63,812 bases of DNA, from positions 1 through 63,812 of the forward strand of contig DATLTU010000014.1 of assembly GCA_035533415.1 (NCBI GenBank), given 5' to 3'. The translations under genes and the position numbers were made by a program. Positions 5,047-62,354 of the stretch are shown piece after piece (position 1 is the first letter of the stretch; every line of letters starts with the position of its first letter). This DNA is from Candidatus Limnocylindrales bacterium. Its GTDB lineage: Bacteria > Acidobacteriota > Terriglobia > Acidiferrales > UBA7541. The notes below the pieces were generated by a model. The model was given only the letters and a program-made list of their open reading frames with translations. It was not told where the DNA came from and did not search any database.

Positions 5047-5062
5047 CGTGATTGTAATCACT
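5047..5062. promoter_or_regulatory. CRP/FNR-like palindrome CGTGA-TTGTAA-TCACT (GTGA-N6-TCAC core)
   Basis: Read directly. It is part of the 14-bp perfect palindrome GTGATTGTAATCAC, in the 430-bp gap between the two ATPase genes and about 300 bp upstream of 5358. Confidence 0.4.
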
Positions 5063-5357
5063 CGGCGGCGGACGTCACGGGGAGCATAGTTTCCGCAGGT
5101 TCTAGTCGATAGAACTCATTGCGCGCCTATCTTTATGAGAAAATCGGTGAGGTACAGCCTTGGAAGGGTAGCTCCTCAGCGGTTGGTGGCCGATGAACTG
5201 CACTGATGCAATCTCGGATCTGAACGGAACTATATCGCCGTGCTTCCAATTCTAGTTCTCAACCTCATTGACCTGTCGACGAGGATTGATCGGTGCGTGC
5301 TCTTCTTGGCGAGGGAAGTAGGCAATTGCCGCGCAAGCCTGTCTTGTCGGGAGCCTC

Positions 5358-7268
5358 ATGATGGCGGGCAATAAAATGCAGGGATTGTTCGCCCGAATTG
5401 CCGATTGGACAATGAGCTTCAAAGCGGTCAAGAAATTTTCTATTCTGGTGGCTCCGAACTCGATTGCCATCCTGGCGATGGCAGGCATTCTCCTGCATTT
5501 GGTTCTTCGATACATCGCGCATGTTCCAAGGATTGCCTGGCAGAGCCCCTTATTTGTGGTCCTCGTATTCGGAGGCGTACCGCTCATTGTGCCGCTGACG
5601 CGCAAGGCGCTGGCGGGCGAATTCGGCGCGGACCACCTTGCGGGAATCTCAATCGTCACATCTGTCCTTCTCGCGGAATACCTGGTAGGGACGATCGTGA
5701 TTCTGATGCTTTCCGGCGGAACGGCTCTGGAGCAATTCGCAAGCCGTCGAGCGTCTTCGGTTCTGGATGCGTTGGCGAAGCGCATGCCTCAAACGGCGCA
5801 CCGTAAGATCGGCGCCACCATATCCGACGTGAAGCTTGCAGAAATAGCCATCGGAGACACGCTCGCTGTTTTTCCCCATGAAGTATGCCCAGTCGATGGA
5901 ACAGTCATCGAGGGCCACGGGAAAATGAATGAAGCCTATCTCACCGGTGAACCGTTCGAGATTGCCAAAACCCCCGGTTCGGAAGTTATTTCCGGCGCGA
6001 TTAATGGCGATATGGCTTTGAACATTCGCGCCGAAAAGTTGCCGATCGATTCCCGCTACGCGAGGATCATGCGCGTGATGCAAGAAACGGAACGGCGGCG
6101 TCCGCACTTGCGCCGGCTCGGGGATAAGCTTGGCGCATGGTATACGCCTGTCGCGCTGGCGCTTGCCGCAGTCGCTTGGGCCGCAACGGGCGAATCGCAT
6201 CGGTTTCTGGCCGTTCTGGTTGTTGCGACGCCGTGTCCTCTTCTTATCGGCATTCCCGTCGCTGTGATTGGCGCTATTTCCCTTTCCGCGCGACGCGGCA
6301 TCATCATCAAGAACCCGGCTGTACTGGAACAGATCGGCCGGTGCCAAACGCTGATCTTCGATAAGACAGGAACGCTGACGTACGGAAAACCATCACTGTC
6401 CGAGATTGTTTGCGCACCGGGCTTCGAACGAAACGCGATCTTGCAGTTGGCCGCGAGTCTTGAGCGTTACTCGAAACACCCGCTCTCCAGCGCCATTTTG
6501 GAAGCAGCCGAAAACGCCAATCTCCCCACGCAGCCCGCCTCAGAGATCAGTGAACGCCCCGGCGAAGGACTGCGAGGAATTGTGGGAGATACGAGCGTGC
6601 GGATTACGGGTCGTGGAAAGGTTGCCGGCCTGAATGTTGTTCTGCCGCTCGCCGCGCCGGGGCTGGAATGCCTCGTGTTTCTAAACGACGCGTATGCCGC
6701 TCTGTTTCGATTTCACGATGCTCCGCGAAGCGACAGTCTGCAATTCATCCGGCATCTGAGACCGCATCATGACGTGAGTCGAATCTTGATTGTTTCTGGA
6801 GACCGCGACAGGGAAGTCCGTGATCTCGCAAAACAGGTCGGCATCAAGGAGATTTATGCGGCAAAGAGCCCCGAAGAAAAAGTCGAAATCGTGCGGGCCG
6901 AGACGAGCCAGCGTCCAACATTATTTCTGGGAGATGGCATCAACGACGCCCCGGCAATGCAGGCAGCCACAGTGGGTGTGGCATTCGGAGTAAAAAGTGA
7001 CATCACATCCGAGGCTGCCGATGCGGTGATCCTCGAAACTTCCCTCAGCCGAGTAGACGAACTGATGCATATCAGCCGCCGCATGCGCCGGATTGCGCTT
7101 CAAACCGCCGTCGGTGGCATGGCTCTCAGCATTATCGGGATGTTCGCTGCGGCGTTCGGGTACTTGCCGCCGATCGACGGCGCCATTGCGCAGGAGATTA
7201 TTGACCTTGCGGCGGTGCTGAACGCCGTGCGCGTTGCTTTACCCACCTCGGCCCTGACTGACTTCTGA
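5358..7268 (+). CDS. Heavy-metal P1B-type ATPase with a 'TPCP' transmembrane motif (P1B-5-like); no N-terminal HMA domain
   Basis: 636 aa. Motifs: 'TGEPFE', 'VVATPCPLLIG', 'FDKTGTLTYG', 'VSGD', 'GDGINDAPAM'. The N-terminus goes directly into TM helices with no CxxC metal-binding domain. Confidence 0.8.
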   Translation: MMAGNKMQGLFARIADWTMSFKAVKKFSILVAPNSIAILAMAGILLHLVLRYIAHVPRIAWQSPLFVVLVFGGVPLIVPLTRKALAGEFGADHLAGISIVTSVLLAEYLVGTIVILMLSGGTALEQFASRRASSVLDALAKRMPQTAHRKIGATISDVKLAEIAIGDTLAVFPHEVCPVDGTVIEGHGKMNEAYLTGEPFEIAKTPGSEVISGAINGDMALNIRAEKLPIDSRYARIMRVMQETERRRPHLRRLGDKLGAWYTPVALALAAVAWAATGESHRFLAVLVVATPCPLLIGIPVAVIGAISLSARRGIIIKNPAVLEQIGRCQTLIFDKTGTLTYGKPSLSEIVCAPGFERNAILQLAASLERYSKHPLSSAILEAAENANLPTQPASEISERPGEGLRGIVGDTSVRITGRGKVAGLNVVLPLAAPGLECLVFLNDAYAALFRFHDAPRSDSLQFIRHLRPHHDVSRILIVSGDRDREVRDLAKQVGIKEIYAAKSPEEKVEIVRAETSQRPTLFLGDGINDAPAMQAATVGVAFGVKSDITSEAADAVILETSLSRVDELMHISRRMRRIALQTAVGGMALSIIGMFAAAFGYLPPIDGAIAQEIIDLAAVLNAVRVALPTSALTDF

Positions 7269-7413
7269 GCGCCAGCGCTTTGAGCCGAGCATCCTTCCCC
7301 GAGAATTCGCGCGTGCGAACGCCCAAGGTCCGATTGCGGCCATCGCTTTTCCTGCCTCGATAGCAACCTACAAACGCGATGGTCCAGCGGTCTCGAATTT
7401 TCATCGTCCCTGG

Positions 7414-13249: not shown

Positions 13250-14107
13250 CTACGATGCTTTCCAGGGCAGGACCAGCACGTTCGAGTCCGCATATCGGAC
13301 GACTCGCTCGGTGGTAGTGCCCAAGGTCGTAAATTCGAAAAATGGCCGGTGCTCGGCACCCAAAACGATCAGATCGACGTCCCGCTCCCGAGCGAGTAAA
13401 ACCACTTGCTCGGCCGCATTTCCCCGGCGGACAACTTCCACCAGATCGCAGTGAGCGCGCATCTCCTCAGGCACCCACTGGCAGAGTCGCTCATGAGTTC
13501 GTTGAAGATCATCGGTCTCCTGTTCCACAGCGTGCATGAGCAAGAGCTTCGCCTTGAAGGCGCTGGCTACGCTGGCCGACAATTCGAGGCCGCGAGAGGC
13601 CAATTTCGTGAAACTGACTGGGCAGAGCACGCTCGAGATTTTCGGCGTCTGCTGATTTGCGCCTGCCTTGACAACCAACGTCGGAATCGCCGTTTCCCTC
13701 ACAACGTTCTCGGCGACGGAGCCCAGCCGCAGCCGCGCCATGCCGCTGCGGCCGTGGCTCCCCATGACAATTAGTTCTGGAGCGTGCTCGGAAGCATGCT
13801 CGAGGATCGCCGCCACGGGATAACCTTCCACCACGGTCGTTGCATACGAAGCCTTCGCGCCAAGCGCTTCGCGAGCTATTCGGCCCAGTTCGTCACGCAG
13901 GGCTGCCAAATGCTCCCGATTCTCTGCGACAAGGGTCTGTATCTGTGCGGCCGTGAAATAGGGCGGCCATTCCTGCCAATCAGCGTGAAGGATTTCCAGT
14001 TTCGCGCCGTAGGTTTCAGCGAACAGTCCAGCCCAGCGGATTACGGCGGGCGTTGCCGGGCTGAGGTCCACTGCACATAGAATACGGCGCGGTGCAAAAA
14101 GTGACAT
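13250..14107 (-). CDS. Tandem universal stress protein (2x UspA domain)
   Basis: 285 aa. Motifs: 'ILCAVDLS', 'MGSHGRSGMARLRLGSVAENV' (G-x2-G-x9-GS ATP motif). The second domain has 'LLMHAV...LGAEHRPFFEFTTLGTTTERV'. Confidence 0.85.
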   Translation of the reverse strand: MSLFAPRRILCAVDLSPATPAVIRWAGLFAETYGAKLEILHADWQEWPPYFTAAQIQTLVAENREHLAALRDELGRIAREALGAKASYATTVVEGYPVAAILEHASEHAPELIVMGSHGRSGMARLRLGSVAENVVRETAIPTLVVKAGANQQTPKISSVLCPVSFTKLASRGLELSASVASAFKAKLLLMHAVEQETDDLQRTHERLCQWVPEEMRAHCDLVEVVRRGNAAEQVVLLARERDVDLIVLGAEHRPFFEFTTLGTTTERVVRYADSNVLVLPWKAS

Positions 14108-14150
14108 TCTGACCCTCCTCTCGGCCCGCCTCAGAACGCATGAGCACGGG

Positions 14151-14166
14151 CGTGACCGGCCTCGAT
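14151..14166. promoter_or_regulatory. Weak CRP/FNR-like site CGTGA-CCGGCC-TCGAT (one core mismatch)
   Basis: Read directly. It lies about 45-60 nt upstream of the USP start at 14107. Confidence 0.2.
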
Positions 14167-14228
14167 ACGATACATATACGCACCAATGATTTCCTGAACT
14201 TGGCCCACTCGCCCCCTAGCGGCGCAAA

Positions 14229-14453
14229 TTATGCCTGTTGTGTTCCGGGCCGTGAATCGTCCGGTTTTCTGCGCATGCCTAATTTCAGGAGAATGTCCTC
14301 CATTAAGCACCACTTCGTAATCCCGGATTGAAACAGGTTGGCCCCGACGAACGCAGTGAGCCAGTACCAATTCCGATCCACCCACGTCCCCAGCGCCAGC
14401 GATGTCAAAATCAGTGTTCCGGCGATAATTCGTATAGCTCGTTCCACGGTCAT
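14229..14453 (-). CDS. DUF2892 (YgaP-like) small membrane protein
   Basis: Start trimmed to MTVERAIRIIAGTLILTSLALG. There are two hydrophobic helices and 'LFQSGITKWC', typical of DUF2892. Confidence 0.6.
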   Translation of the reverse strand: MTVERAIRIIAGTLILTSLALGTWVDRNWYWLTAFVGANLFQSGITKWCLMEDILLKLGMRRKPDDSRPGTQQA

Positions 14454-14500
14454 GGCAGTTGCCCTCCTCTTGCACATCATTCGTTAACCAGCGCCCCTCT

Positions 14501-14812
14501 TCATTGCGCGTGAGCATTTCTGTTACATAATGAATGCGATTGGAGCGGATTCGTTACAGACCACTCCGCCGTGCGGCGTGGCTTACTCACCGCTTGGCTC
14601 GCAACTAGCGTGCGTTTCAAATGTACATCTGTCGTCCCCTGGGCAATTTTCGCGCGTAGAGCTGTATCTACGAGCTCCATTGCCGCATACGTCTTTGCCG
14701 CGAATTCGGCGAACGCCGCCTCGATATTTTGCCGCTGGGAATGCGTCTTCCACGCGGGGACTTGGAGCGCAGGATGCGCTTGTTTCGGTCGTAGGAAAGT
14801 CTCCGATTTCAT
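14501..14812 (-). CDS. Hypothetical protein (103 aa, helical, no recognised family)
   Basis: The ORF is co-directional with and 48 nt upstream of the DUF2892 gene, and a CRP-like site lies about 95 nt upstream. No motif was recognised. Confidence 0.3.
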   Translation of the reverse strand: MKSETFLRPKQAHPALQVPAWKTHSQRQNIEAAFAEFAAKTYAAMELVDTALRAKIAQGTTDVHLKRTLVASQAVSKPRRTAEWSVTNPLQSHSLCNRNAHAQ

Positions 14813-14899
14813 CGGCCATCTCCGTGACTGAACAGCCAGTCAACGAGATCAGTATGCGTGCAGAATGTTTCATGCGTTGTGCGGAGGAACACATTTGTT

Positions 14900-14915
14900 G
14901 GTGACCACGGTCACT
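14900..14915. promoter_or_regulatory. CRP/FNR-like palindrome GGTGA-CCACGG-TCACT
   Basis: Read directly. The core GTGACCACGGTCAC is identical to the site at 32008-32021. Confidence 0.4.
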
Positions 14916-15286
14916 AAAGGCGCCGTAAACTGTTTTCAATCCCAGTGCCGTTATTATTCTCTTGAGTGAACAGGACGCATCGCTCTACGCTGTTCGCCGG
15001 TAGGGACCTCGGCAGCCAAGGCGGTCCTTAACCCGCGTGATTCTCGTCACAGATTTCGCCGGCCAAAGCAGATGTTAATCAGGGTGCGTTTTGCTGCAGA
15101 TGCTAGCCGCCGAAAGAAACATGTAAATGCCCAACTCGGGCGGCACATAAGGCAAGCGACCCGTGCCAGGGTCGCATCTTCGATGGCGCCGACAAGACCG
15201 ATTTCGCCAAACGAACCAAACCATGAACAAATTCGCCAACACGTCCTGGATCAGATGGAACGCCAAGGAGAATTAGCAAAAATAAT

Positions 15287-16375
15287 ATGGCCAAGGCGCA
15301 AAGCACTCCCCGGCTTTCTTTCTTGGACCGATTTCTGACGCTATGGATTTTCGCGGCGATGGTCGGGGGCGTCGCGGCGGGCTACCTGGCGCCGGGAATC
15401 GTCCCCTTTCTGAACCGCTTCAACGTCGGGACCACCTCTATCCCGATTGCGATCGGACTCATCCTGATGATGTATCCGCCGCTCGCCAAGGTGAAGTACG
15501 AAGAACTGGGACGCGTGTTCAGTCACCGTAAGGTGCTGGCCTTATCGCTGATTCAGAATTGGGTCATCGGCCCGGTGCTCATGTTCGCGCTGGCAATTCT
15601 TTTTCTCCGAGACAAGCCGGAGTACATGACGGGACTGATATTGATAGGCCTCGCGCGGTGCATTGCCATGGTGATCGTCTGGAATGACCTGGCCCGGGGC
15701 GATCGTGAGTACGCCGCGGGCCTCGTGGCGCTAAACTCGATTTTTCAAGTTCTGTTTTTCTCCGTCTATGCGTACTTCTTCCTCGCCGTGTTGCCGCGAT
15801 GGTTAGGGATGACGGCAATCCGCGTGAACATCTCGATTCGCGACATCGCAGGGAGCGTTTTCATTTATCTTGGCATTCCGTTCCTCGCAGGTTTTCTAAC
15901 CCGGTTCGTGCTCTTTCGCGTGAAGGGCAAGCAGTGGTATCAGACCCGCTTCATCCCAAAAATCAGCCCGATTACCCTGATCGCACTGCTTTTTACCATC
16001 GTGGTGATGTTCTCGCTCAAGGGACAAATGATCGTTCGCTTGCCGCTCGACGTCATTCGAATCGCCATCCCGCTGACCATTTACTTCGTCGTGATGTTTT
16101 TTGTTTCTTTCTGGATCAGCGCGCGCGTGGGTGCAACCTACGCGGAATCCGCGACGCTTTCTTTTACTGCCGCGTCGAACAACTTTGAACTGGCGATCGC
16201 CGTGGCCATCGCGACCTTCGGAATTAATAGCGGGGCGGCCTTCGCTGCCGTGATTGGACCGCTCGTGGAGGTGCCCGTCCTGATCTCTCTGGTTAACGTC
16301 GCCCTGTGGATCAATAAGCACTACTTCGGCGGCCGATTTGAGACGGTGACCGTTTGTCCTAAGCCCGATGCTTGA
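15287..16375 (+). CDS. acr3: ACR3-family arsenite efflux transporter
   Basis: 362 aa. The N-terminus '[24 protein letters not shown]', '[19 protein letters not shown]' and 10 TM segments are characteristic of ACR3/ArsB (BART superfamily). Confidence 0.85.
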
Positions 16376-16557: not shown

Positions 16558-16573
16558 TGTGACCTGCGTCACA
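16558..16573. promoter_or_regulatory. Perfect CRP/FNR-type palindrome TGTGA-CCTGCG-TCACA
   Basis: Read directly. It is centred about 111 nt upstream of the ATG at 16677. Confidence 0.55.
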
Positions 16574-16676
16574 TGGTTTAGTGATCCGTTACCTTGCTGG
16601 CCGTACCTCATTCATTCAAAATGTCTAGCAGTATGACAAACATGATAAATTGTTATCGATAAGGGAGGTTATCATC

Positions 16677-17438
16677 ATGATGCAAAAGCGAAAGATACGA
16701 GGAGGACCAGCCGCCTTAGCTGCGGTGCTGGCCGCCTTTTCTGCGATTGTCTGGTTTGCGCCGCCCGTGGTGCATGCGGCGTCACCCCAAGCAGGATCCG
16801 TAGCGGGATATACGGTGCAGCAGGCTGCGGGCGGTACAATTTCCGGGAAAATTCTCTATAGCGGGAAGCCCGTGCGGCCGAAGAAAGTTACCGTGACGCA
16901 AGATAGAGGAACCTGCGGAAACATGAAGGAAATCTACCCTGTGCAAGTTGAGCAGGGCGGCGTAGCCAATGCAGTCGTCTGGCTTGACGACGCGACGCAC
17001 GGGAAAGCCTTCGCGTTCCCCGCGCCGGTCATTGATCAGAAGGGCTGCATGTTCATGCCGGACATCCTGCTGATGAAGCCCGGTGAGTTGAAGGTCTTGA
17101 ACAGCGACAAGGTCGCGCACAACATCCATGTCTATGCGAAGTCCAACCGCGGCTTCAATCAGGTCATGCCTCCGGGATCTGCTCCGCTGGAAATCCCGCT
17201 GTACCGCCCAGACACCGTGATCGTTCGCTGCGACGTTCATACCTGGATGCAGGGTAACGTCATCGTGGCGAAGAACCCGTACTACGTGCTGAGCGGGAGC
17301 GGCGGCAGCTTCACTCTCACCGACGTGCCTCCCGGCACGTACCATCTGAAGGTGTGGCAGAGCGCTATCGGCACACAGGAAAAGACCGTCACGGTACAAG
17401 CCGGTAAGACAGCAAGTGTAAATTTCACGCTCAAGTAA
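16677..17438 (+). CDS. Secreted cupredoxin (type-1 copper-like) domain nested in a CarboxypepD_reg-like fold, paralog 1
   Basis: RBS AAGGGAGG lies 8 nt upstream, and there is a signal peptide. 'MFMPDILLMKPGELKVLNSDKVAHNIHV' parallels the plastocyanin 'F.P....v..G..v.f.N.....HN' pattern. 'RCDVHTWMQG' is a C-x2-H-x2-M copper loop (amicyanin-like). The C-terminal 'GSFTLTDVPPGTYHLKVW...VTVQAGKTASVNFTL' is CarboxypepD_reg-like. Confidence 0.75.
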   Translation: MMQKRKIRGGPAALAAVLAAFSAIVWFAPPVVHAASPQAGSVAGYTVQQAAGGTISGKILYSGKPVRPKKVTVTQDRGTCGNMKEIYPVQVEQGGVANAVVWLDDATHGKAFAFPAPVIDQKGCMFMPDILLMKPGELKVLNSDKVAHNIHVYAKSNRGFNQVMPPGSAPLEIPLYRPDTVIVRCDVHTWMQGNVIVAKNPYYVLSGSGGSFTLTDVPPGTYHLKVWQSAIGTQEKTVTVQAGKTASVNFTLK

Positions 17439-17490
17439 CCCTTCCGGTGCAAGAACGGAAGAACCAATCGTTCGGATCGAGGCCGTCACA

Positions 17491-18861
17491 ATGAATCGGT
17501 GGAATAAAAAGGTTGACTGGGTCTACCTCGTGCTGTTCACGGGCACGGCTGCGTTTTTTGTGCTGATTTTTCCTGCTCACAAAGCGCAAGCCGTGCCCAG
17601 TTTTGCCCGCCAGACGGGCCTGGCTTGCAGCTCTTGCCACACGAATCCTCCGGAGCTCACGCCGCTCGGCCGGACGTTCAAACTGAATGGCTACTCGATG
17701 ACCGGAATTAAAGTCATCACCTCGCCACCGGAAAAAGAAAAAGCCGGCCTGACCCTTCTCTCGAATCTTCCGCTTGCGGTTTTGTTCGAGGTTTCGAACA
17801 CGGGAACGAATCGTCCGCAGCCGGGCACGCAAAACTGGAATTTTTCTCTTCCTCAGGATGTTTCCCTGTTTCTCGCGGGTGCCTATGCGACCCACTTGGG
17901 TGGCTTCGTGCAGGCCACCTATCATTCGCAAAACGATCATTTCAGCTGGGACAATACCGACATTCGCTACGCCAGGAACCGCTTGGTCAAAGGCAAAACT
18001 CTCGTCTACGGAATTGACTTGAATAACAATCCTACCGTCGAGGACCTGTGGAACGACACGCCCGCCTGGGGTTTCCCGTGGATCGCATCCGCATCCACGA
18101 CGACGCCCGCGGCTGTGCCCATCATCGACGGCCCACTCGGCCAGGATGTCGCTGGCATCGGCGGCTACGCCATGTGGAATGACCACCTCTACGGCGCGGC
18201 TACGATTTATCGCTCGTCCCATTTGGGACAGCCGCTGCCGAATCCCGGCACGAATTTCGATTTCAACATTCAGGGCGCGGCGCCGTACTGGCGCGCCGCC
18301 TGGCAGCAAACCATGGGCAACAGTTATTTGGAGTTCGGAACCTACGGCATGCACATGCGATCCACGCCGGGGGTCGTCATCGGGCCGGAAAATACGTATA
18401 CCGATTTTGCCCTGGATTCGCAATTCGAGCGTGTTCTTCCGAAAATCCACGACAACCTAATCAGTTTGCACGGGACCTACATCCGCGAAAACTCGAATTT
18501 GAATGCAGCCTTCGATTCGAACGGCGCGAGTTTCATTCCGCACCATTTGAATGCGTTTCAGGTGAACGCCGTGTACCATTTCGGGTATCGCTACGCTCCC
18601 GCGTTCGGATATTTCGTCACTACGGGAAACGCCGATCCGCTGTTATACGCGCCCGCGCCGCTGACGGGCAGCGCGAACGGCAGCCCGAATAGCAAGGGTT
18701 ACATCTTGAATTTCACCTACTGGCCGGTGCAGAACGTGCGTCTGGCGATGCAGTACACCGGCTATACGCAGTTCAATGGCGCGGGCACAAACTATGACGG
18801 CTCAGGGCGCAACGCCGGCGATAATAGCTCGCTGTATCTTTATTTGGGTTTGATCTTTTAG
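17491..18861 (+). CDS. Fused monoheme cytochrome c - outer-membrane beta-barrel (Cyc2-like architecture)
   Basis: 456 aa with a signal peptide ending 'AHKAQA'. A single CSSCH lies 13 residues into the mature chain ('VPSFARQTGLACSSCHT'). The remaining ~400 aa are Gly/Tyr/Asn/Thr-rich with alternating hydrophobicity. The C-terminus 'SLYLYLGLIF' has the terminal Phe typical of OMPs. Confidence 0.65.
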   Translation: MNRWNKKVDWVYLVLFTGTAAFFVLIFPAHKAQAVPSFARQTGLACSSCHTNPPELTPLGRTFKLNGYSMTGIKVITSPPEKEKAGLTLLSNLPLAVLFEVSNTGTNRPQPGTQNWNFSLPQDVSLFLAGAYATHLGGFVQATYHSQNDHFSWDNTDIRYARNRLVKGKTLVYGIDLNNNPTVEDLWNDTPAWGFPWIASASTTTPAAVPIIDGPLGQDVAGIGGYAMWNDHLYGAATIYRSSHLGQPLPNPGTNFDFNIQGAAPYWRAAWQQTMGNSYLEFGTYGMHMRSTPGVVIGPENTYTDFALDSQFERVLPKIHDNLISLHGTYIRENSNLNAAFDSNGASFIPHHLNAFQVNAVYHFGYRYAPAFGYFVTTGNADPLLYAPAPLTGSANGSPNSKGYILNFTYWPVQNVRLAMQYTGYTQFNGAGTNYDGSGRNAGDNSSLYLYLGLIF

Positions 18862-18968
18862 ATTCCCGTTTGAATTCATCGGGTGCCGTGATCTTCAAAA
18901 TCCAAACCCACGGCGAGCCCTCGGATCGAACGCTCGGGCCTGGGATTTGAGAAAGGCGGCTTGCGGAA

Positions 18969-19748
18969 ATGATGCCAAAACACGGAGAAATCAAAATGCG
19001 GGCGCGCGCGGTGGCTTTTGATCTGGCAATCTTGGGAGTTGCGGCGGCCCTGTCCGTAGGTACCGCAATGGCAGCTCATCGTCGAGCCTCGGCTGCCGAT
19101 TCACCTGCCACGGGCCAGATCACGGGCAAAATCTACTTCAAGGGAGTCAAGCCGAAGCTGGCGCGGATCAATATGGGCAAGGATCCCGTATGCGTGTCGG
19201 AGCATTCGGGAACCGTGTACGCGCAGGACGGCGCGGTGAACAGCGACGGAACCCTCCCCAACGCGTTCGTCTACATCAAGCAGGGCAGCGTAAATCTGGC
19301 GCGGCCCGCACCGCGCAACTCGGTGGATCTAACGCAAAAAGGTTGCATGTACGAGCCCCACGTTCTCGGCATCATGGTGGGCCAGCCGCTTCAGGTTCTT
19401 ACCCTGGATCCCACGACTCATAACATCCATGTAGTCGCAAAAATCAATCGTGAATGGAATGTCACGCAGCAGCCGGGTTCACCCTCCGCCATTCGCCGGT
19501 TCACGCATCCGGAGGTCATGATTCCGGTGCATTGCAACGAACATCCGTGGATGAAGGCGTACATCGGAGTGGTCGATAATCCCTTCTACGCAGTCACCGG
19601 CGGCGGCGGAAGTTTTGCCCTCAAGGATGTGCCGCCGGGCGACTACACCTTGGCGGTGTGGACCGCAACCTTCGGAACGCAGGAACAGAAGGTCGTCGTG
19701 CGGCCCGGCGAAATAGCAACCGTCAGCTTCACGTTTGTGAGCCGCTAA
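18969..19748 (+). CDS. Secreted cupredoxin / CarboxypepD_reg fusion, paralog 2
   Basis: 259 aa. Motifs: 'QKGCMYEPHVLGIMVGQPLQVLTLDPTTHNIHV', 'HCNEHPWMKAY' (C-x2-H-x2-M), 'GSFALKDVPPGDYTLAVW'. The start could instead be the ATG at 18996. Confidence 0.75.
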   Translation: MMPKHGEIKMRARAVAFDLAILGVAAALSVGTAMAAHRRASAADSPATGQITGKIYFKGVKPKLARINMGKDPVCVSEHSGTVYAQDGAVNSDGTLPNAFVYIKQGSVNLARPAPRNSVDLTQKGCMYEPHVLGIMVGQPLQVLTLDPTTHNIHVVAKINREWNVTQQPGSPSAIRRFTHPEVMIPVHCNEHPWMKAYIGVVDNPFYAVTGGGGSFALKDVPPGDYTLAVWTATFGTQEQKVVVRPGEIATVSFTFVSR

Positions 19749-19874
19749 CACGCATGAGTGCCAGCTTAATCGCGGGCACATCGCTTGCCCCGCCCATCTG
19801 GTCAATGCCGCGAAGGCGCTAGCCCGATGCTTGGCTCCGCCGTTTCCGGGGCAACCAGCGGCGGCGAGTCAAAT

Positions 19875-22430: not shown

Positions 22431-22482
22431 CCGCCCATGTGAGAGCGAGCCGGTGCGATTTTTGAAAAAGGGGGAAATTACA

Positions 22483-24876: not shown

Positions 24877-24879
24877 ACG

Positions 24880-26085
24880 ATGAAAATACTCATTCTCAAT
24901 TCCGGTTCCAGCAGCCAGAAGAGCAGTTTATACGACATCGAGGGCCCTCTTCCGGCGCGTCCGCCAAGTCCGGTATGGGAAGCCAGGATCGAATGGGATG
25001 GTCGCACGGCGGAGATTCAGGTGAAGGCCCAAAAAGGCGCCACGTTTCATAGCCGCGTAAAAATTGATTCCCGGCACCAGGCGCTAGAGCAGATGTTTCG
25101 CTCGCTCTGGGAAAGCGACGTTCGCGCGGTCGAGAAGCCCTCGGAAATCCACGTCGTAGGTCATCGGATTGTTCACGGCGGTCGCCGATTCGAAGAGCCG
25201 GTCATCATTACCGCCGAAGTGAAACGCGCCATAGCAAGCGCTTCTGCATTTGCGCCTCTTCACAATCGAGTTGAACTCGAAGGTATCGCGATCATCGAAG
25301 AACTTCTGGGGACGGTTCCTCAGGTCGCGGTCTTCGATACCGCCTTTCATCATAGTCTTCCCTTCGCGGCGGCTGTGTATCCCGGACCCTATGAATGGTT
25401 GGCGCAGGGGATTCGGCGGTACGGCTTTCATGGCATCAACCATCAATACTGTGCCGAGCGCGCGGCGCAACTGCTAGGAAAGCCCCTTACTTCTCTCAGG
25501 CTTGTTTCGTGTCATCTTGGAAATGGTTGTTCGCTTGCAGCCATTGACGGTGGCCGCAGTGTCGACACGACTATGGGGTTCACTCCTCTGGATGGATTGA
25601 TGATGGGCACGCGCTCGGGATCGGTCGATCCGAGCATTCTGACTTACCTGATGCGAGAAAAACGAATCGACGCAGGCCGAGTCGATGAGATTCTCAATAA
25701 CGAGTCCGGCCTCCTCGGCATTTCGGGAGTTTCGAGCGACATGCGCAAGATCTTGGAGGCCATGAACTCGGGGAATGACAGGGCAGAACTGGCCTTTGCT
25801 ATCTTCGTCCATCGTCTCCGGTCCGGCATCGGGTCCATGGTTGCCGCACTCGGCGGTCTGGATGCTCTGATTTTCACGGCGGGAATTGGCGAGAATGCAG
25901 CCGCTGTTCGAGAAGCCGCCTGCGCGCGCTTCAGCCATCTTGGCCTAACGCTGGATGCGGTCAAAAACAGTCAGTCGCCGGTTGATCAAGACATCGCCGA
26001 GCGCGATTCATCCGTGCGCGTGCTGGTCATCCATGCCGAGGAGGATTGGGCTATCGCTCGGGAATGTTGGACGATGACTCAGTAA
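24880..26085 (+). CDS. ackA: Acetate kinase
   Basis: 401 aa. Motifs: 'ILILNSGSSSQK', 'GHRIVHGG', 'RYGFHGINHQY', 'FTAGIGEN'. It begins 4 nt after the xfp stop. Confidence 0.95.
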   Translation: MKILILNSGSSSQKSSLYDIEGPLPARPPSPVWEARIEWDGRTAEIQVKAQKGATFHSRVKIDSRHQALEQMFRSLWESDVRAVEKPSEIHVVGHRIVHGGRRFEEPVIITAEVKRAIASASAFAPLHNRVELEGIAIIEELLGTVPQVAVFDTAFHHSLPFAAAVYPGPYEWLAQGIRRYGFHGINHQYCAERAAQLLGKPLTSLRLVSCHLGNGCSLAAIDGGRSVDTTMGFTPLDGLMMGTRSGSVDPSILTYLMREKRIDAGRVDEILNNESGLLGISGVSSDMRKILEAMNSGNDRAELAFAIFVHRLRSGIGSMVAALGGLDALIFTAGIGENAAAVREAACARFSHLGLTLDAVKNSQSPVDQDIAERDSSVRVLVIHAEEDWAIARECWTMTQ

Positions 26086-31865: not shown

Positions 31866-31881
31866 TGTGATAAGAGTCACG
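31866..31881. promoter_or_regulatory. CRP/FNR-like site TGTGA-TAAGAG-TCACG
   Basis: Read directly, in the 512-bp gap upstream of the decaheme gene. Confidence 0.4.
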
Positions 31882-32006
31882 CCCCTTCGTGACTGCAGTC
31901 ATTGCGGCCGCTGCGCCGATCGTGGAAATTTGTACTGCTTGGCCGAGGAGGGTGGCATTTGGAGGACATTCCGCAGGCGGCGAATTCTGTAAAGGGAATG
32001 CAGAAG

Positions 32007-32022
32007 AGTGACCACGGTCACA
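32007..32022. promoter_or_regulatory. CRP/FNR-like site AGTGA-CCACGG-TCACA
   Basis: Read directly. It is centred about 124 nt upstream of the ATG at 32139. Confidence 0.5.
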
Positions 32023-32138
32023 GTCAAAACATCAGATTTATGTATAAATTTTCGGTCGAAGGAAGTTTGATGTCGCCGACGTCGGGCCCTGATTGATGTT
32101 GAGTCCTTGAAGGCGCTGGAAGTTGCCTAGGAGGATAG

Positions 32139-33095
32139 ATGGCACGCGCTAAGACATTGGTGATTGCCGCTCTCGCCGTTTTTGCCTTCCTGCTCGTACA
32201 TCAAGCGTCCACGCGGGCGCAGGAAAAGCAACCTCCGGAGACCCGCGCATCGGTGGCGAATTCTTCTTCTCCACCAGCCTCGGCTTCGTCCCGGTATGCC
32301 GGTTCGGATGCCTGCAAGGTTTGCCACGCGGACGAATACGCGAGCTGGGAAAAATCGCCTCACTGGAACACCACGCTGAATACGCGGGGCGGCCCATCCA
32401 AGCAGGGCTGCGAAGCGTGTCATGGCGCGGCGGCCAGCCACGTCGCGGATCCCAGCGACACCTCCAAGCTTTTCCTTTTCGAGAAGGCTTCGGCCAAGCA
32501 AATCAACGCACGCTGCTTGGCGTGCCATGCGTCAGGCACGGAGCACATGCACGCGATCAATTCCTTGCATGCTCGGAATGGCGTGTCCTGCACATCGTGT
32601 CACTCGCCGCACCACGCCAAGGAAGCGCGGTTCCTGCTCGTTCAGCGCCAGCCAGAGCTTTGCTATTCCTGCCACTTGCAACAGAGGGCGCAGTTCGCGA
32701 TGCCGTTTCATCACCGCGTGAATGAGGGACTTATACAGTGCACCGATTGCCACAATCCGCACGGCACCGAGCGGCCTCACCAATTGCGCTCGTCGGCCGC
32801 TCAGGATGCGGTCTGTTTTACGTGCCACGCGGACAAACAGGGGCCGTTCGTCTTTGAGCATGAAGTTGTGAAAGTGGAAGGCTGCGAGGCATGTCACGAT
32901 CCGCACGGATCTCCCAACCCGCACCTGCTGAAAGTGAGCAACGTCAACCTCCTCTGCCTGCAGTGCCACACGACGTCGTTCGCGAACGCGCCCGGCGCGC
33001 CTTCTTTCCACAACCAGTCCACTCAATTTCAGGCGTGTACGCTTTGCCATACGCAAATTCACGGCTCGAACTTTGACAAGGATTTTTTCAAATAG
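32139..33095 (+). CDS. Periplasmic decaheme c-type cytochrome, MtrA/DmsE/MtoA/PioA family
   Basis: 318 aa, RBS TAGGAGG, signal peptide. There are exactly ten CxxCH motifs: CKVCH, CEACH, CLACH, CTSCH, CYSCH, CTDCH, CFTCH, CEACH, CLQCH, CTLCH. The C-terminal 'CTLCHTQIHGSNFD' is as in the DmsE family. Confidence 0.85.
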   Translation: MARAKTLVIAALAVFAFLLVHQASTRAQEKQPPETRASVANSSSPPASASSRYAGSDACKVCHADEYASWEKSPHWNTTLNTRGGPSKQGCEACHGAAASHVADPSDTSKLFLFEKASAKQINARCLACHASGTEHMHAINSLHARNGVSCTSCHSPHHAKEARFLLVQRQPELCYSCHLQQRAQFAMPFHHRVNEGLIQCTDCHNPHGTERPHQLRSSAAQDAVCFTCHADKQGPFVFEHEVVKVEGCEACHDPHGSPNPHLLKVSNVNLLCLQCHTTSFANAPGAPSFHNQSTQFQACTLCHTQIHGSNFDKDFFK

Positions 33096-35552
33096 GTGCT
33101 CGACATGAGAATTTCTTGCACTTTCTTGTTGCTGATCGCGTTGGCTCTGATCTCGGCGCCTCTGCTGGCGCAGCAGGACAATTCGGGAGAGACGAAGGGG
33201 GTCCAGTCCGGCGAGTACAATGTTCAACAAACCATCGAGTTCGGCTATCGCGACAGCATGGTCAACGGAAATATCGACAATTACGATACGTTCGAGAATC
33301 TCGGCTCGGGCATGCGCTTGTTTAATTACACCCTGGATATGCGCTCGCGCGACCACAAAGGTTTTCTCTTTGACAACCTAACCCTCAGCAACTTCGGGTA
33401 CGGCGGCGATCCGAACGATGTCACGCGCTTGCATATTTCGAAGAACAAATGGTACGAATTCAACGCCATGTTCCGGCGCGATAAGGATTTCTGGGATTAT
33501 AATCTGCTGGCGAACCCGTTGAATCCGGCGAGCTCGGTTCCGGCCCTTGCGATTGTCAATTCACCGCACGCGATGGATCTCGTCCGCAGAATGCAGGATT
33601 ACAGCCTGACGTTGTTCCCTGAATCACGCTTGCGCTTCCGCCTGGGATATTCGCACAACGTCAATGAAGGTCCGGGATTCACCACGCTCGACGGAGGAAC
33701 AGAACCGCTTCTGGCAGAGACCTATCACTATACGACGAATGCCTACCGCGCGGGTGTGGACTACAGATTCTTTCCCAAGACCACGCTATCCTTCGACGAA
33801 TTACTCACCTATTTCAAGCAGGACAACTCGGTGACCGACCAGAATTTCCCCTTTGTGCTGTCTAACGGTACTCCCGCGGACCTCGGCATCGTGTTCAATA
33901 CCGCAGGTGGCACGCCCTGTGCCGCGCCGATTGCCAATTCGCTCACCACGCCGCCCACCGCAAACGCGGCTTGCAACGGCTACCTTGCGTACAACCGCGT
34001 AGGCCGTCCGCGGGGATCGTTCCCAACCGAGCGGCTCGGTTTTGAGTCGAGCTATTTCAAGAATCTCGAAATGTCCGGCTCGCTGGGCTATAGCAGTGAT
34101 AAGAATTCGACTCTCGATTTCAGCGAAGTCGTGAACGCCTGGACCAGCCGGACCGTCAGCCGGGGAAGCACGCTTGGCGGGCCAGCTGACGCCAAGCGCG
34201 TGTCCGTCACTGCGGACTGGGAGGGTGATTATCGCGTCACTAGCAAGCTTCACATTGTCGATGAATTTCGATACGACAACTGGCGCATTCCCAGCACGTG
34301 GGCCACGGCCGGCACAAACCTGTTTGGGACGCCCCCGCCAGCACCCGGGGATGCCGGATTGTTGCTTCCCATTGCGCAGGTGAATCCGGCGACTTTCGCC
34401 ACGGTTTGCCCCGCGGCTCCGTACAATGGGCCGAACTGTCCGCAGCACTCTTCGGGTTCCGGCGCCGACATAGTGAATCAACTGGTTTCGCAGTTCCTGG
34501 GGCAGAATCTCAAGACGAATACGCTTGAGTTCGAGTACGAAGTCACGCGCCGCATCGACGCGCGCATCGGGTACCTGTACACGGCCCGCACGATTGCCGA
34601 TTTCAGCGCCACCTTTAATACCGGGGTGATCTATTTTCCAGGAGGATCTACTGGAGACGCGGCCAATGATTATCTGGCGGCGCGCGGCGATTGCGCCTTA
34701 GTTTCCGGCGCGCTTCCCTCCGTTTGCACCCTCAACTCAGACGGCTCGATCACGGAAGTCGGCCCCGTGGCGGGCAACGATACATCCCGAAACATCACCA
34801 ATATCCACGAAAATGCCCTCCTCTTGGGCATTTCCGCGCGCCCGGCCGATAAACTGAGGTTGAGCGCCGATTTTATGTTCGGCTACAACGACAATTCATT
34901 CACGCGCATCAGCCCGCGCCAACTGCAAAGTTATAGAATCCACGCGACGTACACTCCAACGCAATGGGCGAGCATTGGCGGCGCGATCGACATCCACGAG
35001 AACCGCGACAATGTGTTTACGGTCGATAATCTCGAACATGACCGGACGTTCAGCCTGGTGACCACGCTGGCTCCCAATCCCCGCTTCTGGGCGGATTTTG
35101 GCTACGATTACACAAACATCTCCACCCAGGCGGAAATTTGCTTTGCTGATCCCGGTTCGACTGTGTTCACCGCGCCGTGCCCCGTTGCCGGCGCCACGGG
35201 TCCGCTCGGCGCGCTTTCGTTTTACAAGAACACGGATCACTTTGTATACGGCGACATGATGTGGAAGCCGGTTAAGCGCGTTACGGCCGCGGTCGGATAC
35301 GCCGGAAGCATCGTGCGCGGCAGCACTCTTTTCATAAATCCGCGGCAGCCCACGGGGCCGCTCGATTTCAATTACCTCAAGCCCAACGTCAGCCTGGCAT
35401 TGGAGATTTACAAGAACACGATATACAAGACGGCATGGGGCTACTACGGGTACAATGATCGCGGCATCGCCAATCCCGTAGGGTTGGCGGCCCTTCCGTT
35501 GCAGGATTTTAACGGAAGCAATGTCACGTTTTCGCTACAGTATTCGTTTTGA
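33096..35552 (+). CDS. Large outer-membrane beta-barrel, MtrB/PioB/MtoB-like partner of the decaheme cytochrome
   Basis: It starts at the nucleotide after the decaheme stop (GTG 33096 or ATG 33105). It is 818 aa (PioB-sized) with signal peptide 'LLLIALALISAPLLAQQ', a Tyr/Gly/Asn/Thr/Asp-rich amphipathic pattern and a C-terminal 'VTFSLQYSF'. Family membership is inferred from context and composition. Confidence 0.65.
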   Translation: MLDMRISCTFLLLIALALISAPLLAQQDNSGETKGVQSGEYNVQQTIEFGYRDSMVNGNIDNYDTFENLGSGMRLFNYTLDMRSRDHKGFLFDNLTLSNFGYGGDPNDVTRLHISKNKWYEFNAMFRRDKDFWDYNLLANPLNPASSVPALAIVNSPHAMDLVRRMQDYSLTLFPESRLRFRLGYSHNVNEGPGFTTLDGGTEPLLAETYHYTTNAYRAGVDYRFFPKTTLSFDELLTYFKQDNSVTDQNFPFVLSNGTPADLGIVFNTAGGTPCAAPIANSLTTPPTANAACNGYLAYNRVGRPRGSFPTERLGFESSYFKNLEMSGSLGYSSDKNSTLDFSEVVNAWTSRTVSRGSTLGGPADAKRVSVTADWEGDYRVTSKLHIVDEFRYDNWRIPSTWATAGTNLFGTPPPAPGDAGLLLPIAQVNPATFATVCPAAPYNGPNCPQHSSGSGADIVNQLVSQFLGQNLKTNTLEFEYEVTRRIDARIGYLYTARTIADFSATFNTGVIYFPGGSTGDAANDYLAARGDCALVSGALPSVCTLNSDGSITEVGPVAGNDTSRNITNIHENALLLGISARPADKLRLSADFMFGYNDNSFTRISPRQLQSYRIHATYTPTQWASIGGAIDIHENRDNVFTVDNLEHDRTFSLVTTLAPNPRFWADFGYDYTNISTQAEICFADPGSTVFTAPCPVAGATGPLGALSFYKNTDHFVYGDMMWKPVKRVTAAVGYAGSIVRGSTLFINPRQPTGPLDFNYLKPNVSLALEIYKNTIYKTAWGYYGYNDRGIANPVGLAALPLQDFNGSNVTFSLQYSF

Positions 35553-35620
35553 AGCGAGGCCGAAATTCGATGGCGCGGTGTGGGATCATTCATAATCGGA
35601 AGCTCAGCAGAGAAAGGCGG

Positions 35621-35968
35621 ATGCAGATGAACTGTCAAATGGCTAAAATTATCCAGAAGGTACTTTTCGCGTGCGCGCTCGTTTTTTTCCTGAACGTATC
35701 CGCGCGAGCCGATGACTCGGCGAGTCTTTATAAAACAAAATGCGCCGTGTGTCATGCCGCCGACGGCAGCGGCAACTGCCTAATGGGGAAGAAATTGGGC
35801 GCGAAGGACCTGCGCTCCGACGAGGTGCAGAAGAAAACTGACGCGGAGTTGACCGCCGTCATAACCGACGGCATGGGCAAGACCATGCCGGCATACAAAG
35901 GTAAGCTGACGGACGCTCAGATCAAGGAGCTCGTCTCCTACATCCGCGAGATTGCCAAAAAGAAGTAA
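35621..35968 (+). CDS. Periplasmic monoheme class-I cytochrome c (MtoD-like position)
   Basis: Signal 'KVLFACALVFFLNVSARA', 'CAVCHAADGSG' and distal Met 'GKTMPAY'. The start is trimmed to ATG 35621. Confidence 0.75.
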   Translation: MQMNCQMAKIIQKVLFACALVFFLNVSARADDSASLYKTKCAVCHAADGSGNCLMGKKLGAKDLRSDEVQKKTDAELTAVITDGMGKTMPAYKGKLTDAQIKELVSYIREIAKKK

Positions 35969-36036
35969 ATCTCCAACGATTCCTTCGCGCCAGATCATTG
36001 CCGCATTCATTCCTGGCGGCGGCATGAGGAGGGTTC

Positions 36037-36654
36037 GTGACCGGATTAACGGGCGTACTGATCGCTCAGATTGTTGTTGCGATCGCATTGGCTTCCATTT
36101 TTTTCATTCGCCCATCCGTCACGGTGAGCCCCACCGGCAAGGTTCTGGCTTTCCTCGGGCTGTGCGTTCTTCCTGCTCTTTCTCTCATCGGCGGAATGAA
36201 CACTCACATCCAGCGCTCGGAGCAAACTCGCTTCTGCATCTCCTGCCACGCCATGGCTCCCTATGGGCGAAGTCTGTATGTCGACGATCCCAGTTACATT
36301 CCCGCCGCGCATTTTCAGAATCACCGAGTCCCGGCGAACAGTGCTTGTTACACCTGCCATGCCGATTACTCGATTTACGGACCCCTGAAGGATAAGCTGC
36401 AAGGTCTCAAACGAATCTACATGCAGTATGTGACGACTCCGCCCAATCCAATTCGGATCCCCGGCGGCTATAACAACAACCAATGCCTGCATTGCCACGA
36501 AGGCGCGCGTGATTTTGAAGAGAATCCCATCCACTCGGCGATCATGAGCACGCTGACATCGAATCAGATGTCCTGCATATCGAGCGGCTGCCACGACACC
36601 ATCCACAACGTCGCGGCGCTGAATCACGTGAAATTCTGGAGTCCTGGCCAATGA
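36037..36654 (+). CDS. Membrane-anchored NapC/NirT/CymA-like multiheme quinol dehydrogenase (3 CxxCH + 1 Cx4CH)
   Basis: GTG start with RBS GAGGAGG. There are two N-terminal hydrophobic segments. Heme motifs: CISCH, CYTCH, CLHCH and 'CISSGCH'. Confidence 0.7.
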   Translation: MTGLTGVLIAQIVVAIALASIFFIRPSVTVSPTGKVLAFLGLCVLPALSLIGGMNTHIQRSEQTRFCISCHAMAPYGRSLYVDDPSYIPAAHFQNHRVPANSACYTCHADYSIYGPLKDKLQGLKRIYMQYVTTPPNPIRIPGGYNNNQCLHCHEGARDFEENPIHSAIMSTLTSNQMSCISSGCHDTIHNVAALNHVKFWSPGQ

Positions 36655-39515: not shown

Positions 39516-39583
39516 GGGGGAAAAATTGCCCTGATTCTCCCACGGATTAGCATCTTGAACGTTCCTGTGGTTTCCGTCAGCCG

Positions 39584-40102
39584 TTAGGCCGCGCTTTTTG
39601 CGCCACGAACCTTCCGCATCGGTTGAGCTTTGGGCAAATCAATTTCCACGAAGCGCCCCTTGAATTTGGCTGTAACCCGCGCTGGTAGAATCTCGACAGG
39701 GAAGTCGAGAAAGCGAAAGATCATACCCTTGCGCGAACCTGAACCACCGCTTTCCGGCGACTGGAATGGCTTACCGACACGGGGTGTTCCGCAAATCGTG
39801 AGGCGCCGCGGCTCCACGCAGATTTCGATCTCTCCTTTTTCAAAGGACGCGACATCGGTGCTCAACCAGATCCTGTCGTCCAACACGAGATGCCCGCAGT
39901 TGAGTGGCCCTACGATTTCCGACTCGGCGCGCCGCCAGTCTTCCGCATCATGCCCGGCCCCGCAACCACGGCTTTCGCAAATCTGGAATGCTCGCACCGC
40001 GACGGCATCGCGAATCCTTTTGCTTTGCTCCGCCGGACTGACCGGCGCAATCTTCAGGTTTCGCCCGTTCCACGATCGCTCCGTTGAAGTTTCTTGTCGC
40101 AT
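39584..40102 (-). CDS. DUF2934-like N-terminus fused to an Hsp20/ACD-like domain (paralog of 29635..30150)
   Basis: 172 aa. Motifs: 'RAFQICESRGCGAGHDAEDWRRAESE' (DUF2934 pattern), then 'IWLSTDVASFEKGEIEICVEPRRLTICG...KFKGRFVEIDLPK'. Confidence 0.6.
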   Translation of the reverse strand: MRQETSTERSWNGRNLKIAPVSPAEQSKRIRDAVAVRAFQICESRGCGAGHDAEDWRRAESEIVGPLNCGHLVLDDRIWLSTDVASFEKGEIEICVEPRRLTICGTPRVGKPFQSPESGGSGSRKGMIFRFLDFPVEILPARVTAKFKGRFVEIDLPKAQPMRKVRGAKSAA

Positions 40103-40166
40103 GTGGTGCCTCCCACGGAATCAGAAGCCTTGCAATAAACTATATCGCTGATTCGTTCCTTTCCGA

Positions 40167-40182
40167 TGTGACGCCCATCACA
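40167..40182. promoter_or_regulatory. Perfect CRP/FNR-type palindrome TGTGA-CGCCCA-TCACA (arms extend to GATGTGA/TCACATC)
   Basis: Read directly. It is centred about 72 nt upstream of the minus-strand start at 40102. Confidence 0.55.
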
Positions 40183-62328: not shown

Positions 62329-62354
62329 AACTCAACCTCTATCGCTCTCCCGCG

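Follow-up and report, generated by a model that had tools for sequence, protein, structure and literature searches.

Conserved GTGA-N6-TCAC palindromes upstream of electron-transfer and stress genes in Terriglobia Acidobacteriota: putative operators of a CRP/FNR-family regulator

We analysed a 63,812-nucleotide stretch of contig DATLTU010000014.1 (assembly GCA_035533415.1; Acidobacteriota, Terriglobia, Acidiferrales), referred to here as the window, in which palindromes of the form GTGA-N6-TCAC recur upstream of redox and stress genes. Judged by their sequence, placement and conservation, these palindromes are real, conserved promoter sites. The explanation we favour, with a probability of about three in four, is that a CRP/FNR-family factor of Terriglobia ('Ca. 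Acidoferrales/Acidiferrales') Acidobacteriota uses them as operators, which lie in the class II position and are often arranged in tandem. The factor would recognise t-GTGA-Y-N4-R-TCAC-a through a CRP-type helix, SRETVTR. Bound as a dimer centred near -41.5, it would take the place of the -35 element and activate RNA polymerase; many promoters would bind a second dimer at a distance of exactly 22 bp upstream (near -63.5), and where genes diverge the two sites could act on one promoter each. We infer activation, as opposed to repression. Six units of the window would be driven in this way: an mtoA-like operon (decaheme cytochrome, porin, cytochrome c and CymA-like cytochrome), a Cyc2-like cluster, a DUF2934-Hsp20 gene, a minus-strand operon of small open reading frames (ORFs) and a universal stress protein (USP), an ACR3 pump and, probably, a heavy-metal P-type ATPase. 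Transcription of the Cyc2-like cluster would probably read through to phosphorylase, phosphoketolase and acetate kinase genes, and the regulator itself would be encoded elsewhere in this genome.

Palindromes in the window and in related loci

The window contains nine exact GTGA-N6-TCAC sites, at 5026, 5048, 14901, 15037, 16559, 21081, 31867, 32008 and 40168, where 0.69 would be expected, and none of 100 dinucleotide-preserving shuffles of its sequence reached nine. Intergenic and coding DNA were compared, as the first-pass annotation of this DNA had suggested, on a gene map built from ORFs, Pfam and NCBIfam matches and public gene calls. Intergenic DNA makes up 11.2% of the window yet holds eight of the nine sites (binomial P = 2e-7). 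The six sites that the annotation had listed, at 16558, 40167, 32007, 31866, 14900 and 5047, are all present, among them TGTGACCTGCGTCACA at 16558 and TGTGACGCCCATCACA at 40167, whose arms extend to GATGTGA/TCACATC, and the core at 14900 is, as it had stated, the same 14-mer as that at 32007. Its tally was nevertheless short, since 5026 (the tandem partner of 5048), 15037 and 21081 had been missed. A weaker seventh site that it had proposed at 14151, GTGACCGGCCTCGA, did not hold up: it has two core mismatches, lies inside the minus-strand ORF 14131-14517, scores no higher than background and lacks a -10-like element at the expected distance.

All nine exact sites also match the tighter pattern GTGAY-N4-RTCAC. 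When the window was scanned with a weight matrix trained on phased partner sites from related loci (see below), the same nine sites took the nine top scores, with a steep drop to background beneath them; the scan for weaker sites brought up nothing above background except phased partners. The only site in coding sequence, 21081..21094, lies in frame within the alpha-glucan phosphorylase gene, where it encodes VTHVT immediately ahead of the residues NGVH, and neither of its sides shows a -10-like element at the expected distance. Coding constraint or chance probably accounts for it; the fetched loci include no orthologue of that phosphorylase by which its conservation might be judged. Two near-identical near-palindromes, GAGATGCATATCAC (62790-62803) and GAGATGCTTATCAC (63680-63693), lie 890 bp apart, each with one mismatch and a background score.

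Proteins of the window were found on soil and peat metagenome contigs. In one-genome-per-species collections, homologues of its decaheme cytochrome come almost entirely from metagenome-assembled genomes (MAGs) of Acidobacteriota/Terriglobia ('Ca. Acidiferrales', 'Ca. Acidoferrum', Terracidiphilus), at 41-84% identity. We collected 79 genome loci around mtoA homologues, together with two metagenome contigs carrying the window's own mtoA, 1.42 Mb in all (loci and contigs are cited below by L numbers). These related loci contain 260 exact sites. Across the 79 genome loci plus the window, deep coding sequence (positions more than 150 bp into long ORFs) holds 0.29 sites per 10 kb and all other DNA 3.85, an approximately 13-fold difference; under a cruder partition the intergenic density is 8.3 per 10 kb. 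In most loci sites recur 100-300 bp upstream of mtoA, and in an alignment of seven orthologous mtoA upstream regions GTGA...GTCAC is the only invariant block besides the start codon. Position 5 of the sites is C or T in 88% and A in 5%, while the flanks and the 4-bp centre are at background base composition. Because position 5 is constrained and flanks and centre are not, we regard the palindrome as the footprint of a bound protein rather than as a repeat element.

The sites also recur in front of the same genes. Clustering of the proteins encoded downstream of sites in the related loci gave mtoA (43 loci), a small Cys-rich family (31 genes, 30 loci), a tandem USP family (29 genes, 26 loci) and a CRP/FNR regulator family of ~240-267 aa (29 genes, 27 loci). 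The targets that the first-pass annotation had thought to be shared are borne out, the sites of the decaheme/porin operon, USP, DUF2934-Hsp20 and P-type ATPase genes being conserved across genomes. The small Cys-rich protein (e.g. L022:8278-8763, minus strand) has ~120-160 aa and four conserved cysteines, and is divergent from the CRP/FNR regulator gene with a common tandem operator. It has no Pfam or NCBIfam match and is absent from the window.

Tandem arrangement follows a single spacing. In the related loci 56 consecutive site pairs show a spacing of exactly 22 bp. If up to two mismatches are allowed, 84 of 264 exact sites have a partner at -22 and 86 have one at +22; within -60 to +60 these are the only enriched offsets. 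The window has one perfect pair, 5026/5048, and three imperfect ones, 31867/31889 (one mismatch), 14879/14901 (two) and 16559/16581 (three); 15037, 32008 and 40168 are single sites. A search of the literature for tandem CRP sites at -41.5/-63.5 returned only irrelevant matches. Four metagenome contigs of low GC content (0.42-0.54) carry, instead of the two-site acidobacterial operators, five to eight head-to-tail copies of CGTGAC-N4-GTCACG with a strict 22-bp period (L091:957-1058, L099:2649-2800, L141:3661-3760 and L154:840-940). These arrays look like an unrelated, iteron-like feature, and the contigs were excluded from the downstream-protein family scan and from the second -10 analysis described below.

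Promoter geometry and the accompanying regulator

With the sites oriented toward the downstream gene, a TANNNT hexamer peaks 22-23 nt past the gene-proximal site, at 20 of 151 in the genome loci compared with ~1 per offset elsewhere. The same peak (26 of 137 flanks) appears in separately gathered metagenome loci, which were found by the tandem DNA pattern alone. A -10 hexamer starting 22-23 nt after the 14-bp site puts the site centre at about -41.5/-42.5 and a phased partner at about -63.5. A centre at -41.5 is the class II position of CRP/FNR activators, and the predicted -10 positions thus argue for class II promoter geometry. In the window, -10-like hexamers follow 40168 (TATAGT, 40139-40144, minus strand), 32008 (TATAAA, 32043-32048), 5048 (CATAGT, 5085-5090), 14879 (CATACT, 14851-14856, minus strand), 16581 (CAAAAT, 16617-16622) and 15037 (TGTTAA, 15073-15078).

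The first-pass annotation had assigned the motif to the CRP/FNR family, and the relatives bear this out, for in them the palindrome flanks a CRP/FNR-family gene (Pfam cNMP_binding and HTH_Crp_2, as well as Crp) that is itself preceded by sites and may therefore regulate itself. This gene lies directly upstream of mtoA in ~25 loci, divergent from the Cys-rich gene with the tandem operator in between. All 29 regulator-bearing loci have sites, at 2.7 per 10 kb versus 1.3 in loci without the regulator. Among solved structures, the protein is closest to M. tuberculosis CRP and to a second CRP/FNR-family regulator (E = 2.5e-24), and they have the stretch GASRETV of the recognition helix in common. 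The family is large (4695 proteins at E <= 1e-30) and is annotated only generically. Two paralogue types, of ~267 aa (L018-like) and 238 aa (L003-like), are 46% identical and share the SRETVTR helix and the cysteines; L063 has three regulator copies within 20 kb.

All 31 aligned homologues have the helix SRETV(T/S)R, an N-terminal C-x2-C-x8-C and a fourth cysteine in the 'F-I-L-C-x-G' strand of the beta-roll. The helix aligns with RETVGR of E. coli CRP, which we take to be the R-E-x3-R arrangement that reads GTGA, and is compatible with the GTGA half-site. At the positions of CRP residues E72, R82 and S83, which are the cyclic AMP (cAMP) contacts of E. coli CRP, the acidobacterial homologues have L/P, Y/E and E/V. 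Compared with C20/C23/C29/C122 of FNR, the three N-terminal cysteines are spaced C-x2-C-x8-C, the fourth is located elsewhere and the C122 position is Ala. Scores against the NCBIfam equivalogs fall far below the cut-offs (FtrB 83 versus 211 bits, Fnr 57 versus 228, CRP 54 versus 266).

The link between operator and regulator also emerged when only DNA was searched for. The pattern GTGAYN4RTCAC-N8-GTGAYN4RTCAC, run against JGI metagenome contigs, matched at least 120 stretches in at least 80 loci, mostly of 54-62% GC. Among the matches listed, 71 flanking proteins of at least 100 aa include 9 CRP/FNR regulators, 8 USPs, 8 radical-SAM proteins (mostly SPASM), 6 small Cys-rich proteins, 4 OsmC and 4 Cyc2-like homologues, and all nine regulators have C-x2-C-x8-C, SRETV(T/S)R and the beta-roll cysteine. 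By a rough estimate of ours, CRP/FNR genes account for well below 1% of all genes, and chance would then place far fewer than one regulator beside these operators. Radical-SAM/SPASM and OsmC genes stand by tandem operators, among the matches listed, in approximately L096, L098, L128, L132, L156, L158, L160, L163 and others. The window lacks these genes, which are probably additional members of the regulon. We found no literature on an acidobacterial CRP/FNR regulon, on this cysteine pattern or on a 22-bp phased pair, which is weak evidence given the incomplete coverage of the search.

Sites and candidate target genes of the window

The conserved mtoA promoter site of the window is 32008..32021 (GTGACCACGGTCAC), ahead of the decaheme operon at 32139..36654 (plus strand), which encodes a DmsE/MtrA-family decaheme cytochrome, an 818-aa porin-like protein, a monohaem cytochrome c and a NapC/NirT (CymA-like) cytochrome (Pfam; NCBIfam TIGR03508). 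The 818-aa protein has no family match, and its orthologues come after the decaheme gene in relatives. Further upstream lie 31867..31880 (GTGATAAGAGTCAC), the distal member of a pair, and its partner 31889..31902 (GTGACTGCAGTCAT). The top weight-matrix score of the window belongs to 40168..40181 (GTGACGCCCATCAC), with 7-bp arms and its -10 directed toward the gene of the DUF2934-Hsp20 small heat-shock protein (39584..40102, minus strand; Pfam). In L005 the orthologue of this gene has a site 63 bp upstream, and in L003 it is located behind a site-preceded USP gene. A divergent PfkB kinase gene (~40608-41579, plus strand) is a possible second target of 40168.

The Cyc2-like cluster is preceded by 16559..16572 (GTGACCTGCGTCAC), a perfect 16-bp palindrome when its flanks are included, with a weak phased partner at 16581-16594. 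The same-strand gene run that follows (16677..26085, plus strand) encodes a CarboxypepD_reg protein, the Cyc2-like protein of 456 aa, a second CarboxypepD_reg protein, alpha-glucan phosphorylase, phosphoketolase and acetate kinase (Pfam), and its short gaps suggest a single operon. The Cyc2-like protein has a single CXXCH, at residue 46. Its homologues adjoin tandem operators in four metagenome loci among the matches listed, and xfp in L005 has a tandem pair directly upstream. The CarboxypepD_reg domain is C-terminal in three paralogues of ~260-280 aa (16677-17438, 18969-19748 and 30278-31117); the latter two also contain a C-x2-H-x2-3-M motif resembling a copper site (HCNEHPWM in 18969-19748).

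Between these genes and the left part of the window lie two further candidate promoters. The site 14901..14914 carries the same 14-mer as 32008, GTGACCACGGTCAC, and was found by both the exact scan and the weight matrix. It most likely drives a probable operon on the minus strand (13250..14812), in which a 103-aa ORF (14501-14812), a 128-aa ORF (14131-14517) and a tandem-domain USP gene (13250-14107; Pfam Usp) follow each other. Its partner proximal to the minus-strand promoter, 14879..14892 (GTGCGGAGGAACAC), is backed by the 22-bp phasing only, its weight-matrix score being at background. The site 15037..15050 (GTGATTCTCGTCAC) precedes an ACR3 arsenite efflux transporter gene (15287..16375, plus strand; NCBIfam TIGR00832, 465 bits), a candidate target.

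The leftmost pair consists of 5026..5039 (GTGACGCTCATCAC), the distal half, for which an identical 14-mer occurs at the orthologous position in L003 (6049), and 5048..5061 (GTGATTGTAATCAC), the proximal half. Their candidate target is the gene of a heavy-metal (P1B) P-type ATPase, here called ATPase-2 (5361..7268, plus strand; Pfam, NCBIfam TIGR01525 and a gene call in L082). L003 and L090 both keep a site ~280-310 bp ahead of their ATPase-2 orthologue, and also the spacing of the leader of ~260-300 nt (window 5062-5360) between predicted -10 and start. Rfam searches at gathering thresholds gave no match in this leader or elsewhere. The assignment of ATPase-2 to this pair is uncertain.

Counting those already named, the first 41 kb encode two P-type ATPases (the second P1B), an RND efflux system, two tandem-domain USPs, an extracytoplasmic function (ECF) sigma factor and two Hsp20 proteins, one of them fused to DUF2934. 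At 26272-27159 a single 295-aa ORF, followed by a TonB_C protein, joins ECF sigma regions 2 and 4 to a zf-HC2 anti-sigma motif; it may be a fused sigma/anti-sigma protein or an artefact of ORF calling.

Objections, alternatives and known systems

Several observations weigh against the operator model. For 15037, 16559/16581 and 14879/14901, the -10 predictions depend on hexamers and partner sites that are weak, and downstream of the pair 31867/31889 no -10 is recognisable. ATPase-2 starts ~300 bp away from its sites. In the weight-matrix scan of the window, the USP gene at 28606 and the Hsp20 gene at 29635 have no site of their own, nor does the sigma factor gene. The cysteine pattern of the regulator differs from that of E. 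coli FNR (C-x2-C-x5-C plus C122). Finally, no regulator gene was found for this organism: the window codes for no CRP/FNR-family protein, tblastn of it with the two regulator types gave no match, and the 10 kb beyond each window edge contain none, in keeping with the first-pass annotation, which had placed the regulator outside the window. The nearest ones are those of the sister populations L003 and L090, just upstream of the orthologue of the other ATPase (ATPase-1), and it is exactly there that the synteny of the window breaks.

In L003, the closest genome, whose MtoA is 83% identical, the gene order is regulator, ATPase-1, USP, ATPase-2, USP, cytochrome c and mtoA. L090, a contig from the metagenome sample of the window, is arranged almost identically. 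We considered its regulator (P0002), the closest homologue in that sample, as that of this organism, and rejected it because its contig is only ~80-86% identical in DNA to the window and so represents a sister population. There is also no regulator remnant upstream of ATPase-1, similarity to L003 starting ~50 bp before the ATPase-1 start. The window lacks the USP gene that L003 and L090 have between their two ATPases, which leaves the pair 5026/5048 ~300 bp upstream of ATPase-2, a distance as in the relatives. The break, together with a UPF0236 transposase-like gene and an AbiEii gene beyond the left edge of the window (L082:11358-20738), suggests a rearrangement left of ATPase-1 (window 1962-2581 and beyond). 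At the other end (61903-63812), contigs with a 141-aa protein diverge right after it (L086 versus L087, downstream of 10426), into housekeeping genes or a phage-capsid region, which points to a strain-variable insertion point at the right end of the window.

The sites might instead have arisen by chance or belong to a dispersed repeat or the end of a mobile element, as the identical 14-mers at 14901 and 32008 could be taken to indicate. The shuffles, the background composition of flanks and centre, the lack of any Rfam match and the conservation of sites at orthologous promoters of genomes only 41-84% identical in MtoA effectively refute this, and so does the alignment upstream of mtoA, where orthologous regions keep the half-sites only; the dispersed repeat, named by the first-pass annotation as an outcome fatal to its proposal, thus did not materialise. 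Operators of a Rex-type repressor sensing NADH/NAD+ would account for redox-related genes as well as for the core and its spacing, since the Rex box, TTGTGAA-N4-TTCACAA, has the same GTGA-N6-TCAC. It requires, however, an A at position 5, which only 5% of the sites have, and the sites lie at about -41.5, upstream of the -10, where an activator would bind. What is more, the gene that travels with the operator is of the CRP/FNR family, and no Rex-type domains occur among the 25 of 51 recurrent flanking Pfam families listed, so that we consider Rex very improbable. A classical cAMP-CRP catabolite regulon reporting carbon status deserves slightly more credit but is still improbable. Half-site and spacing match those of the CRP box exactly, the proteins are labelled 'cyclic AMP receptor protein' in public annotations and M. 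tuberculosis CRP is among the best solved relatives. On the other hand, the residues that contact cAMP are missing and four conserved cysteines are present instead, the CRP equivalog score is far too low, and the targets are genes of stress, redox and metal functions rather than catabolic operons.

A fourth alternative concerns the number of factors. Several paralogous CRP/FNR regulators could share the boxes and respond to different signals (O2, NO, metal or redox stress), forming a network in which the two sites of a tandem are perhaps bound by different paralogues. The two paralogue types with the same helix and cysteines, the three copies in L063 and the size of the family speak for this, whereas no systematic difference between proximal and distal site sequences was established; we consider such a network possible but somewhat doubtful. 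It would refine rather than contradict the model of CRP/FNR operators. The 'one factor' of the first-pass annotation accordingly stands as to its family; because relatives hold several paralogues with the same helix, it may be a small network and not a single factor.

As to the signal to which the proposed CRP/FNR factor would respond, we lean slightly toward oxygen limitation or the cellular redox state. There are three reasons: the cAMP contacts have been lost and four conserved cysteines gained, in an FNR-like N-terminal position; the cargo closely parallels the low-oxygen-induced lxa locus of Burkholderia cenocepacia; and the Fnr of Bacillus/Paenibacillus is already an Fe-S oxygen sensor that reads a CRP-type box. 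An Fe-S cluster in the regulator is a conjecture. We put forward, tentatively and at rather less than even odds, that the regulators form a new sensor subfamily widespread among soil and peat Acidobacteriota, in which C-x2-C-x8-C and the beta-roll cysteine (as an Fe-S or thiol switch) would be combined with CRP-type DNA reading by two dimers 22 bp apart (-41.5/-63.5), turning on electron conduits (MtoAB/CymA-like and Cyc2-like) and dormancy-type stress genes when oxygen runs out.

To our knowledge, nothing is known of the conditions under which the MtrA/MtoA-type conduits of 'Ca. Acidoferrales' are expressed. These Acidobacteriota have been proposed, on gene content alone, as dominant iron cyclers of acidic tropical soils (PMC7980381). 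The operators connect iron-related electron-transfer genes with genes for stress survival, probably in a response to low oxygen or redox state. Together with the travelling regulator gene, they predict that the conduit is co-expressed with USP, Hsp20 and phosphoketolase/acetate-kinase genes in an anoxia or redox programme, which would favour a role in anaerobic electron disposal. If the sensor subfamily is real, iron-linked extracellular electron transfer in a highly abundant soil lineage would be gated by oxygen or redox state. The motif could also serve to recognise, directly in MAGs and metatranscriptomes of uncultured soil bacteria, which genes belong to the regulon.

The boxes of E. coli CRP, M. 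tuberculosis CRP (Rv3676) and Corynebacterium GlxR (TGTGA-N6-TCACA) have the same half-site and 6-bp spacing as the sites described here, and the proteins share the R-E-x3-R helix and the fold family. The acidobacterial regulators differ from this group in that the cAMP contacts are not conserved, an N-terminal C-x2-C-x8-C extension and a beta-roll cysteine are present, the targets are stress, redox and metal genes and the 22-bp tandem is common. B. subtilis Fnr acts from the class II promoter position, as proposed here. The Fnr of Bacillus/Paenibacillus is likewise a cysteine-bearing CRP/FNR regulator with a CRP-type box, there controlling an anaerobic regulon: it is an Fe-S oxygen sensor that binds TGTGA-N6-TCACA and holds its [4Fe-4S] cluster by three C-terminal cysteines and Asp141 (bioRxiv 10.1101/2020.01.03.894683). 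In our case the cysteines are N-terminal plus one in the beta-roll, the phylum is another one and outer-membrane electron conduits are among the targets.

With E. coli FNR and Pseudomonas Anr the proposed system shares the superfamily, an N-terminal Cys-rich extension, sites at -41.5 and USP and fermentation genes as targets; PMC3721108 cites Anr as controlling USPs. However, FNR and Anr use an E-x2-SR helix, a TTGAT-N4-ATCAA box and C-x2-C-x5-C plus C122, whereas here we find RETVTR and GTGAY-N4-RTCAC. FNR proper was rejected on helix and box, as well as on its NCBIfam score (57 bits versus the cut-off of 228).

The cargo has a close counterpart in the lxa locus, which is activated by low oxygen and encodes USPs, alpha-crystallin/Hsp20, a PfkB-type kinase, a cation P-type ATPase and CRP/Anr-like regulators (PMC3721108). 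At 17 intergenic points it contains a 4-bp inverted repeat with a 6-bp spacer, FNR/Anr-like and with the common core TGA-N6-TCA (PMC3721108). The cargo described here (USPs, Hsp20, PfkB kinase, cation ATPase and fermentative ATP-yielding enzymes, by Pfam and NCBIfam, with radical-SAM enzymes in relatives) fits such an lxa/Anr/DosR-like low-oxygen survival set. The lxa host is, however, a betaproteobacterium without porin-cytochrome conduits, and low-oxygen induction was measured there, whereas our cargo is read from sequence. The regulon under M. tuberculosis DosR has a similar cargo (USPs, Hsp20/alpha-crystallin, PfkB-type kinase and cation ATPase, as noted in PMC3721108); DosR belongs to a two-component regulator family with an unrelated DNA motif, and the likeness is functional only. 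A CRP/FNR regulon with a CRP-type box at -41.5 is thus a well-known kind of system, and the unusual features of the one proposed here are only its 22-bp phased tandem operator and its cysteine pattern.

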